Part shown: piece by piece, positions 6,134 to 8,498 of the stretch
Layout of the letters: each line of letters opens with the position of its first letter
How positions within the stretch are numbered: position 1 is the first letter of the stretch
Origin: Candidatus Obscuribacteraceae bacterium
Lineage (GTDB): Bacteria > Cyanobacteriota > Vampirovibrionia > Obscuribacterales > Obscuribacteraceae
Assembly: GCA_044229845.1 (NCBI GenBank)
Contig: JBGASG010000006.1
Location: forward strand, 192,001-256,000
Length of the DNA stretch: 64,000 nucleotides
Direction of reading: 5' to 3'
The notes under the pieces: model-generated
Seen by the model: only the letters and a program-made list of their open reading frames with translations
The model's database searches: none
What the model was told of the DNA's origin: nothing
Position numbers and translations under genes: made by a program

Positions 6134-6928
6134 CTAGGCGGTGCGAGCGATTTCGGCGTCGGCGCAAATTAGAGTTCCCGGGTGTCCGGGATTGAACGTG
6201 TTGCGCACGCGAATCTGGACACCGTGCTGCTTAGCCAGCGTCACGGAGCGATCATGAATTACCTGCGCGCCCGCGCGGGCCATTTCGAAGCAGTGGTCGT
6301 AGCCTATCTCGGGAATCAAGACGGCGCCGGCAACTTTGTTGGGGTCGGCGGTAAAAACTCCGTCGACATCGGTAAAGATGTGGCAGACGCCCGCGCCGAC
6401 CGCGGCGGCCAGCGCCACGGCGGACGTGTCCGACCCGCCGCGCCCCAGGGTCGTGATGTCACCGTCGACGGTGCTGCCCTGGAATCCGGCGACGACGATC
6501 ACGTCATTGTCTTGCAGTTCTTCCAGGATGTGCGGAGCATCGACGGTGAGGATGCGGGCACAGCCGTGTTCGGCTTCAGTGAGCACACCAATCTGCTGAC
6601 CGGTAAATGATTTGGCGCGCACGCCGCAGGACTTGAGAATCATGGTCAAAAGCGCGATCGAGACTTGCTCTCCGGTGGACAACAGAACATCCAGCTCGCG
6701 CTTATCCGGCTGCTCCGCACAGCGCAGCGCCAACTGATACAGATGATCCGTGGTATCACCCATCGCCGACACGACGACGATGGTTTTCTGTTGCTTCGAG
6801 AACGATTGCACGATCTGGGCAACGTTCTGCATTCTGCCGATGCCGCGCACCGACGTGCCTCCAAATTTGAGCACGGCGATGCTTTGAATATTGGTCTGAT
6901 TGTTTACCCGCAGGTTAACAGCGCACAT
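6134..6928 (-). CDS. lysC: Aspartate kinase, catalytic domain only (no ACT domains)
   Basis: KFGGTSV, VVSAMGDTT, TLGRGGSDTSA, TDVDGVFTADP; ends just after the kinase domain; GGAGGA RBS before ATG 6928. Confidence 0.9.
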   Translation of the reverse strand: MCAVNLRVNNQTNIQSIAVLKFGGTSVRGIGRMQNVAQIVQSFSKQQKTIVVVSAMGDTTDHLYQLALRCAEQPDKRELDVLLSTGEQVSIALLTMILKSCGVRAKSFTGQQIGVLTEAEHGCARILTVDAPHILEELQDNDVIVVAGFQGSTVDGDITTLGRGGSDTSAVALAAAVGAGVCHIFTDVDGVFTADPNKVAGAVLIPEIGYDHCFEMARAGAQVIHDRSVTLAKQHGVQIRVRNTFNPGHPGTLICADAEIARTA

Positions 6929-6973: not shown

Positions 6974-8275
6974 CTATTTGGCGGGCGATGCCGCCAGTTC
7001 TCTTTGTTGTTCTTGTTGTTCTTGCTGCTTTTGCTGCCGCTCCTTGCCGCCGGAGACAGTGCCGGCAGCCACAGCCGGTAGGGCTTGCGCCAGGTCAGCG
7101 ATCAAGTCACGCGCGTCTTCGATGCCGCAGGACAATCTGATCAAACCATCGGTGATACCACACTGTTCCTGCACGTCTTTCGGTATCGGCTTGTGCGTCA
7201 TCGTGGAGGGATGACAAATCAACGACTTGACGCCACCGAGGGATTCGGCGAGCTGGAACAAACGAGTCGACCGCACCAGATGCTTAGCATTGTCCAGTCC
7301 GCCTTTGACGACAAAAGAAACCATGCCGCCGAAACCAGTCATCTGGCGCTTGGCCAGTTCGTATTGCGGGAACGAGGGGAGTCCCGGGTAGAAAACCTGT
7401 TCTACTGCCGGATGTTGTTCGAGAAAGTTGGCGACTTCCGTGGCGTTGCGCTCGTGTTCTCTCATGCGCAGGGAGAGGGTCTTCACGCCGCGCAAAGTCA
7501 GGTAGCAGTCGAATGGACCGGGAACGCAACCGGATGCATTCGTGTAAAACTGCAATTGCTCGTAGAGATCCTCGCGATCCGTGATCACGGCACCGCCGAT
7601 GACATCGGCGTGTCCGCTCAGATATTTGGTTGTACTGTGAACTATGACGTCGGCGCCGAACTCCAGTGGACGCTGGAAATATGGTGTCGCAAAAGTGTTA
7701 TCGACGCAGTAGATCAAATTGTGGCGCTTGGCGATTTTGCCGATTTCGCGCAAATCCGCAAGCCGGAGCAGGGGATTCGTCGGCGTCTCCAACCAGATCA
7801 ACTTGGTCTGGCTACACACCGCGTTTTCAATCTGTTGAACATCGCGGGCGTTTACATACGAAAAACTGAGATTGTAGCGTTTGAGGACCTTTTCGAAGAG
7901 GCGGTAGACGCCGCCATATACGTCTTCGCCGACAACCACGTGATCGCCTGCATTGAGCAGGCTGGCAACCACTGTCACAGCCGCTAAGCCGGAGGCGGTG
8001 GCGATGCCGTAGCGAGCGCCTTCGAGCGAAGCCAGGCATTCTTCAAGCGCAGTACGCGTCGGATTGTGCGTACGGGCATATTGGTACCCTTTGTTGACGC
8101 CCAGCTCATCGAGCGCGAATGTCGAAGTCTGGTATATCGGAGTAGTGAGGGCGCCGGTGGCGGGGTCTGGTTCCTGCCCGTGATGTACGGCTCTGGTGGC
8201 GAATGCCAGGGTCGAGGTGAACTCGCGTTGCGCTTTGGTCTTCTCGCAGCCGTTGTGAGTGGGATGTACGGTCAT
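6974..8275 (-). CDS. metB: Cystathionine gamma-synthase/lyase (PLP trans-sulfuration family)
   Basis: PIYQTSTF, YARTHNPT, ETPTNP, DNTF, HSTTKYLSGH (PLP Lys), AESLGG; AAAGGAG RBS before ATG 8275. Exact reaction specificity uncertain. Confidence 0.85.
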   Translation of the reverse strand: MTVHPTHNGCEKTKAQREFTSTLAFATRAVHHGQEPDPATGALTTPIYQTSTFALDELGVNKGYQYARTHNPTRTALEECLASLEGARYGIATASGLAAVTVVASLLNAGDHVVVGEDVYGGVYRLFEKVLKRYNLSFSYVNARDVQQIENAVCSQTKLIWLETPTNPLLRLADLREIGKIAKRHNLIYCVDNTFATPYFQRPLEFGADVIVHSTTKYLSGHADVIGGAVITDREDLYEQLQFYTNASGCVPGPFDCYLTLRGVKTLSLRMREHERNATEVANFLEQHPAVEQVFYPGLPSFPQYELAKRQMTGFGGMVSFVVKGGLDNAKHLVRSTRLFQLAESLGGVKSLICHPSTMTHKPIPKDVQEQCGITDGLIRLSCGIEDARDLIADLAQALPAVAAGTVSGGKERQQKQQEQQEQQRELAASPAK

Positions 8276-8303
8276 GGTGATGTTTCTCCTTTCAATAATT
8301 GCC

Positions 8304-8342
8304 AAAAGAAAACTCCCCTTCTCTGCCGCGAGAAGGGGAGTT
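8304..8342 (-). terminator. Attenuator (intrinsic terminator) in metB leader
   Basis: 13-bp stem AACTCCCCTTCTC/GAGAAGGGGAGTT, 6-nt loop, then TTCTTTT on minus strand. Confidence 0.85.
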
Positions 8343-8367
8343 AATTGCACTTTCTAAGCTTGCTGAG

Positions 8368-8463
8368 TTAATCGAGCCAGACGATGTGCAAACACCCTAC
8401 TTCCCCGGCGGGGTAGTAGCGCATGTTCATGCTCATCATCATAGTTGTGGCGCGATTCGACAT
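8368..8463 (-). CDS. Methionine-rich attenuator leader peptide (31 aa)
   Basis: MSNRATTMMMSMNMRYYPAGEVGCLHIVWLD*; 5 internal Met codons within 7 codons; upstream of the terminator and Met-pathway genes. Confidence 0.8.
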   Translation of the reverse strand: MSNRATTMMMSMNMRYYPAGEVGCLHIVWLD

Positions 8464-8470
8464 GTGCCCC

Positions 8471-8498
8471 ATGATAGCGGCAAAAATTGCGCTGTCAA
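8471..8498 (-). promoter_or_regulatory. Putative sigma70 promoter for met leader
   Basis: TTGACA-N16-TATCAT; -10 lies 7 nt before leader ATG 8463. Confidence 0.65.

Follow-up and report, generated by a model that had tools for sequence, protein, structure and literature searches.

A probable Met-codon transcription attenuator ahead of a metB-like/aspartokinase operon in Obscuribacteraceae

The Met pathway is controlled by SAM-I, SAM-II and SAM-IV riboswitches, Met T-boxes and the regulators MetJ and MetR, and, to our knowledge, Met forms a conspicuous gap among the amino acids read by classical attenuators, a gap that is plausibly explained by the Met cost of starting the leader itself. The attenuator of Pasteurellales thrA was reportedly predicted by Vitreschak et al. 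in 2004 to read Thr, Ile and Met. There, as in the leader described below, control of an aspartokinase gene is said to have been ascribed to Met codons; however, Met is said to be an addition to a thr leader in that case, whereas here it alone is invariant and a metB-like gene comes first.

Streptomyces lividans metL, located ahead of metNIQ, is presented in the accessible part of its description as a candidate leaderless leader peptide that is assigned to Met and untested [PMC8079986]. It resembles our leader in being leaderless and Met-assigned, with no sequence likeness claimed, but differs, as far as that part of the source goes, in having two internal Met residues among Cys, in being without a typical intrinsic terminator or comparative support and in preceding a transporter. 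The available portion of another study summarises the classical attenuator (Yanofsky) model and describes leaderless poly-Cys sORFs of mycobacteria as translational attenuators acting by SD occlusion [10.1101/834739]. As portrayed there, these sORFs are likewise leaderless and sense a sulfur amino acid via its charged tRNA; in contrast to their occlusion of the SD, the output proposed here is an intrinsic terminator, of whose stem the SD is not a part. Actinobacterial Met operons are reported, in the portion of the survey at hand, to have no conserved upstream structure, with Met assigned to S-boxes [PMC1262725]; Met leaders do not appear in the accessible parts of two further papers [PMC2965389, PMC3082878], and attenuation in cyanobacteria is said to be without reliable data in the accessible part of a third [PMC4833913].

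The leader described here shares with trpL, hisL, leuL, thrL, pheL and ilvL a short ORF carrying codons of the pathway product, 1:2, 2:3 and 3:4 hairpins, a U-tailed terminator and a biosynthetic operon behind it. Unlike those attenuators, it has Met control codons in an alternating M-x-M-x-M order, its ORF is likely leaderless, extends across the whole of segment 2 and has its stop codon in the antiterminator loop, and its host is a non-photosynthetic relative of cyanobacteria; judged from the sequence, the Met-specific control codons and the likely leaderless ORF that spans segment 2 would be what is new. No experimentally tested Met attenuator was found in a full-text literature search, outside whose scope lie subscription papers and survey supplements that may hold predicted Met leaders. 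Within the literature covered, the view of an earlier note on this DNA that such control is uncharacterised for Met holds, the precedents being the weak predictions for Streptomyces metL and, reportedly, Pasteurellales thrA.

The locus lies in a stretch of 64,000 nt from a Candidatus Obscuribacteraceae bacterium, hereafter the window. We read it, with a probability of about 0.85, as a ribosome-mediated transcription attenuator, a Met-specific variant of classical attenuation that would allow read-through into metB-lysC only when elongator Met-tRNA is short. The features on which this reading draws are as follows.

8493 to 8498, minus strand: -35 hexamer TTGACA (11/12 consensus; most orthologues have a TTGAC-type hexamer at a spacing of 16 nt ahead of the -10 box)
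8471 to 8476, minus strand: -10 hexamer TATCAT, with the start ATG 7 nt downstream in the window copy
8463, minus strand: predicted transcription start, at or adjoining the A of the leader ATG, from promoter spacing
8368 to 8463, minus strand: leader ORF of 31 codons, MSNRATTMMMSMNMRYYPAGEVGCLHIVWLD*, from the sequence and the ORF list
8422 to 8442, minus strand: control codons ATG ATG ATG AGC ATG AAC ATG (M8-M14), which also form the outer 5' strand of the 1:2 hairpin
8410 to 8421, minus strand: inner strand of segment 1, CG CUACUACCCC, from the fold (inner-stem covariation not significant)
8386 to 8409, minus strand: segment 2, a purine tract plus GUGUUUGCAC, with segment 1 or 3 as alternative partners (outer 2:3 pairs covary)
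8325 to 8350, minus strand: segment 3, GUGCAA through the terminator 5' arm and loop, the antiterminator partner, from fold and covariation
8304 to 8342, minus strand: intrinsic terminator of 13 bp (stem 8342-8311) with the U tail UUCUUUU (8310-8304), from fold and covariation
8286 to 8291, minus strand: SD AAGGAG of the metB-like gene, not within the terminator stem
6974 to 8275, minus strand: metB-like gene of the cystathionine gamma-synthase family (NCBIfam NF005871, 517.6 bits against a cut-off of 513; PF01053)
6134 to 6928, minus strand: aspartate kinase (lysC-like), kinase domain alone (TIGR00657 passes; PF00696 only)

The earlier note had claimed a minus-strand sORF of 31 codons at 8463-8368 with a Met run, and the sequence and the ORF list agree with its coordinates. 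The promoter TTGACA-16-TATCAT spans 8498-8471 on the same strand, and a second ATG, upstream at 8472, falls within the -10 box. The complementarity of segments 1 and 2 that had been noticed is real, CUACUACCCC (8419-8410) forming 9/10 pairs with GGGGAAGUAG (8406-8397) around a single A-A mismatch, but the 1:2 stem, which had been placed after the Met run, is longer and takes in the Met codons (8444-8377; -29.6 kcal/mol, z -3.9). For 2:3, the proposed pairing of UUGCAC (8391-8386) with GUGCAA (8350-8345) stands, whereas the best computed register is GGGAAG/CUUCUC plus GGGU/ACUC and not GGGG/CCCC; this fold reaches -30.6 kcal/mol (z -2.0; 8/200 shuffles equally good), and either register blocks the terminator 5' arm. 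The 13-bp terminator with its U-tract was likewise recovered as claimed (3:4 fold, -24.3 kcal/mol, z -5.4). The ORF reads through segment 2 and does not end ahead of it, and its probable leaderless state had been overlooked.

A covariance model trained on 20 orthologous leaders was used to search 104 genomes of the family and matched 62 of them at E <= 0.05. Strong copies (E <= 1.5e-5) occur at 61 places in 60/104 genomes, each with a Met-containing leader ORF, and an in-frame Met run, whose loss in orthologues would have spoken against the element, is kept in all 61. Five weaker matches were excluded from these counts. Four of them (G125:C11, G124:C12, G003:C23 and G066:C7) were rejected as leaders, being without promoter or terminator. 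The fifth, G013:C10 (L171:310-440), resembles a genuine leader, with a leaderless Met-containing ORF, MRNLMCNLLMSMSLRRGAASLRA*, and a strong terminator, but stands ahead of unrelated genes, one haem-oxygenase-like and one U32-like.

Several features suggest that the leader is read by ribosomes. In 61/61 leaders, 6 or 7 nt separate the -10 box from the ATG that follows it, and an SD-like motif ahead of this ATG was seen in 0/61, for which reasons the ORF is likely leaderless. Codon statistics were drawn from 34 non-redundant leaders (< 90% alike), and these counts serve as descriptions and not as p-values, because relatives are not independent samples and some of these leaders had served to train the model. 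Each of the 130 ATGs in nt 4-54 keeps the frame of the start, and Met makes up 23.9% of codons 2-17 compared with 2.1% in the genome background of long ORFs, the fewest internal Met being one in a single leader and two in another. The leader frame stays open for 22-34 codons in 34/34 leaders, and the remaining frames close at varying, often very early points. Relative to an invariant ATG, which lies 27, 30, 33, 36, 39 or 42 nt from the start, each distance a multiple of 3, Met is found at offsets -4, -2, 0 and +2 in 19, 30, 34 and 24 of the 34 leaders, giving the M-x-M-x-M pattern; the codon just before the invariant ATG takes 14 forms among the 34.

Such conservation could also reflect a nascent peptide that responds to SAM or Met by arresting the ribosome, with the hairpins merely relaying the signal. 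The MTO1 region of plant CGS1 places the same enzyme family under nascent-peptide arrest control, and the orthologous leaders are partly alike, with N-R near the start and P-S-G-G after the Met block. However, invariance is limited to the Met positions, while peptide length (22-34 codons) and the C-terminal residues vary freely; the P-S-G-G residues are imposed by the hairpin, and arrest at high SAM would turn the operon on amid ample product. We hold this explanation to be very improbable, and equally so that the RNA is an undescribed metabolite-binding riboswitch, for instance for SAM, on which the ORF is incidental. Terminator/antiterminator logic suits a riboswitch platform and SAM control is common for Met genes, according to the accessible part of [PMC1262725], but the only invariant letters are the in-frame ATGs, indels preserve the frame and conserved aptamer-type loops are absent. 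Rfam, in which a SAM or T-box match could have explained the region, gave nothing above the gathering score at the locus, only a distant tRNA in the window, and no SAM or T-box match in 20 related loci. SAM-I was found in 1/104 family genomes, at a contig end, and neither a T-box nor MetJ was found in the window's genome (G000, 88% complete). A PyrG-leader match at the terminator (Rfam, E up to 10) was rejected, with 24.8 bits against 65.

The Met-codon attenuator further predicts helices that exclude one another, and RNAalifold returned the 2:3 helix when given a first alignment and 1:2 together with 3:4 when given a second. Column covariation was assessed on a 34-row MAFFT alignment with 500 shuffles, the 1:2 and 2:3 columns being picked by eye from the same alignment. 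Double changes number 39 in the terminator pairs and 27 in the outer 2:3 pairs, and in each case 0/500 shuffles match in cells paired, double changes or score. Support is weaker for the outer 1:2 pairs (12 double changes, 2/500 shuffles; score 12/500), and the inner 1:2 stem does not rise above the shuffles in this alignment (score 56/500), so that the expectation of covarying helices is borne out for the terminator and the outer antiterminator and not for inner 1:2. When segments were swapped between genomes, the native ones bound better in 30/30 leaders for each of 1:2, 2:3 and 3:4, compared with 17/30 and 15/30 for the control pairs 1:4 and 1:3; this test and the footprint model below used n = 30, leaving out the 4/34 leaders in which the 1:2 loop could not be placed. 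By script count, 29/34 orthologues have at least five T in the 8 nt past the stem, and four of the five below that count have U runs that the script scored into the stem. Taken with the conserved Met run and the negative Rfam result, the covariation of terminator and antiterminator supports the attenuator reading that had been proposed. In one relative, L123 (G026:C192), the U tail of the terminator is poor (UUAUCACUU) and its extended stem adjoins the SD; output there may have moved toward translation.

Two models were used to place the ribosome. In the barrier model, transcripts were cut at the terminator loop and all RNA behind the ribosome was masked (n = 35, including G013:C10); the terminator arm was captured in 34/35 leaders with the ribosome at the last Met and in 0/35 with the ribosome at the stop. 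In the footprint model, 27 nt alone were masked and pairing across the ribosome was allowed (n = 30); capture was 30/30 at the last Met and 0/30 with the ribosome on segment 2, and with the ribosome at the stop 2:3 still formed in 24/30 leaders, including the window copy (0.75). The stop codon lies 22-54 nt beyond the 1:2 loop and within the 2:3 loop, and the OFF state is therefore assumed to need either a ribosome on segment 2 or steric exclusion of the helix. In the window copy, the distal Met codons M12 and M14 best mask segment 1, and a stall at M8 is marginal, as the inner 1:2 stem can persist.

Unlike the textbook default, naked RNA favours 2:3 over 1:2 in 25/30 leaders, whereas that of the window copy keeps 1:2 (arm capture 0.0, against 0.71-0.76 when stalled). 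The leaders of G123, G008 and G098:C151 likewise favour 1:2, while 2:3 dominates in those of G035 and G015. At full length, the terminator of the window copy is favoured at equilibrium by 12-21 kcal/mol in every ribosome state, and the switch must therefore be kinetic. Kinetic switching is also a property of other attenuators. The same equilibrium dominance would suit a constitutive or vestigial 5' terminator with Met codons arisen by chance, a reading we regard as scarcely credible, given that a constitutive terminator would shut the operon off and that the element is conserved, with covariation, across 60 genomes. Moreover, at least four Met in eight codons occur in just 16 of the 37,716 ATG-started ORF tails of 15-45 codons in the whole genome, and the window leader is the sole one of these with a terminator-like hairpin below -12 kcal/mol behind it.

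Under Met-codon attenuation, events might proceed as follows. Transcription would begin at the leader AUG, as the promoter spacing suggests, and a 70S ribosome would initiate without an SD. The 1:2 hairpin would form first and may pause the polymerase. With ample Met, the ribosome would pass M-x-M-x-M and cross segment 2 to the stop in the 2:3 loop, leaving segment 3 to pair with segment 4, and the U-tailed terminator would end the transcript near 8304. With Met short, it would wait at the Met codons, masking segment 1 and freeing segment 2, and 2:3 would capture the terminator 5' arm. We hypothesize that failed initiation would also turn the operon on, since the ORF must cross segment 2 for termination and naked RNA often prefers the antiterminator, which would ease the initiator-Met difficulty, though not for the window's own copy. 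RNA contigs from 8 metatranscriptomes comprise metB pieces at a depth of 2-5, none containing the Met block, and one contig of 164 nt (8222-8385) spans the terminator.

The genes behind the leader bear out the metB-like/aspartokinase operon that the sequence had suggested, NF005871 lying over its cut-off and TIGR00657 passing. The enzyme direction, gamma-synthase, would follow from the family score and the lysC/hom linkage, with the caveat that the metB-like gene nests among cbs-linked paralogues in the tree described below. The enzyme may use O-phosphohomoserine, as neither MetX (TIGR01392) nor MetA (PF04204) was found in this genome (G000, 88% complete) though metH is present. The window aspartokinase is likely feedback-insensitive and left to transcriptional control, since the ACT regulatory domains are absent; the kinase is likewise short in G011 and G025 (276 aa), and most orthologues have 414-468 aa. 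Upstream of the operon, at 2-5 kb, lie mtnA for Met salvage (13645-12497, minus strand, over cut-off) and a class II aldolase-like gene (10654-10013, minus strand).

For 57/61 leaders, an aspartokinase gene is present in the 2.3 kb that follow, two of the others having too little sequence and two being without one; the leader stands directly ahead of the kinase in two cases (G098:C151 and G008:C214), and at least two operons continue with hom. These neighbours would also fit an attenuator of the same build that reads Met and Thr jointly, or a general shortage of the aspartate family. Such joint reading is known, as thrL reads Thr and Ile, and Thr is modestly elevated in the leaders, at 9.9% of codons 2-17 against 5.5% in the background, often as T-T-T or T-M-T-M right before the Met block. 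We nevertheless consider it unlikely: Met is present in codons 2-17 of all 34 leaders but Thr is missing from 7, the Thr codons precede the block through which segment 1 is masked, and a separate hom-thrC-thrB-lysC cluster exists on contig C19 of this genome (names from sequence, PF00742).

The preferred reading, an attenuator specific to Met, can also be set against the paralogues of the first gene. Among 30 metB-family loci, 14 have the promoter, Met-rich ORF and terminator, and the other 16, each immediately preceded by a cbs-like gene, have none of these features (cbs identity in this genome, TIGR01137). The leader is present at 56/60 best metB-family matches in the family, the other four being cbs-linked paralogues. 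A quick tree of 58 proteins unites the 27 genes with a leader in a single branch (SH-aLRT 99) that falls among the cbs-linked genes, which suggests that the leader-bearing metB-like gene is a duplicate re-tasked for synthesis. A phylum-wide search with the model matched 12/151 genomes at E <= 0.05, and none of the six matches outside the class combined a Met-rich ORF, a terminator and a Met gene. Of the 80 loci, mostly from unrelated taxa, that were listed by a search with the aspartokinase as query, 10 contain the metB gene. No Met-rich leader was seen within 330 nt upstream of metH, the homocysteine methyltransferase/MTHFR-like gene, cbs, hom or the third lysC of this genome (G000).

Met-rich leaders also stand ahead of other genes in the lineage. 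Met/Cys-rich leaders (MMMCMMMPMP...) with terminators precede metY in three genomes of another family, f5 (L192:1508-1612, L196:3816-3899 and L197:426-509). A tandem pair of Met-rich leaders is found in family f3 (L194:157-399 and L191:720-972), with a terminator-like hairpin behind each leader in L194; the gene that follows encodes a ThiS/Urm1-like protein of 109 aa with a C-terminal GG and, in one case, a weak PF09138 match. It possibly belongs to a sulfur-carrier route to homocysteine, a route known from Wolinella. In L193, L195, L222 and L229, leaders such as MTNNNTMMMQMMMQNLTRGGRCCANRMC* and a terminator precede a protein of 432-440 aa, which matched nothing in Pfam or NCBIfam and, with the 440-aa protein as query, only Melainabacteria hypothetical clusters in Atlas. 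As no metB-family match was found in the four sampled genomes of that family, one might guess that the protein serves Met uptake.

At rather less than even odds, we would extend the proposal to Vampirovibrionia as a whole: Met control there may rest mainly on Met-codon attenuators and not on SAM riboswitches, the design may escape the initiator-Met paradox, and the leader may tag unannotated genes as Met-linked (the 432-440-aa Melainabacteria-only protein, the ThiS/Urm1-like carrier and the haem-oxygenase-like operon). The family of leaders would be a case of control by coupled transcription and translation in the lineage that is sister to oxygenic cyanobacteria. Its 61 natural variants could serve to test whether the charging of elongator Met-tRNA is sensed apart from initiation, and the leader could be used as a 160-nt Met sensor for reporters and as an aid to gene annotation in an uncultured lineage.

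Leader-peptide attenuation is likely used generally in this lineage, because Leu-rich and Asn/Asp-rich leaders occur in the same genome. The former, MQSMTQFQLLLGALSLLLNGGALLLSLEN* (324-235, minus strand), has a TTGACA promoter, a terminator at about 208-180 and a leuA-like gene starting at 132, the protein of which scores below the LeuA cut-offs; Leu-rich leaders whose promoter spacing is the same are found at 17/21 family loci of this gene, making the element a candidate leaderless Leu attenuator. The latter, MQALATVKANNARSASFGSFAAANANNNDADNNDRSRSYCLHR*, is located with a terminator ahead of an aspartate-tRNA(Asn) ligase gene (L219; G000:C1, gene start 1013026, minus strand; NF003483 over cut-off) and is a candidate Asn/Asp attenuator.
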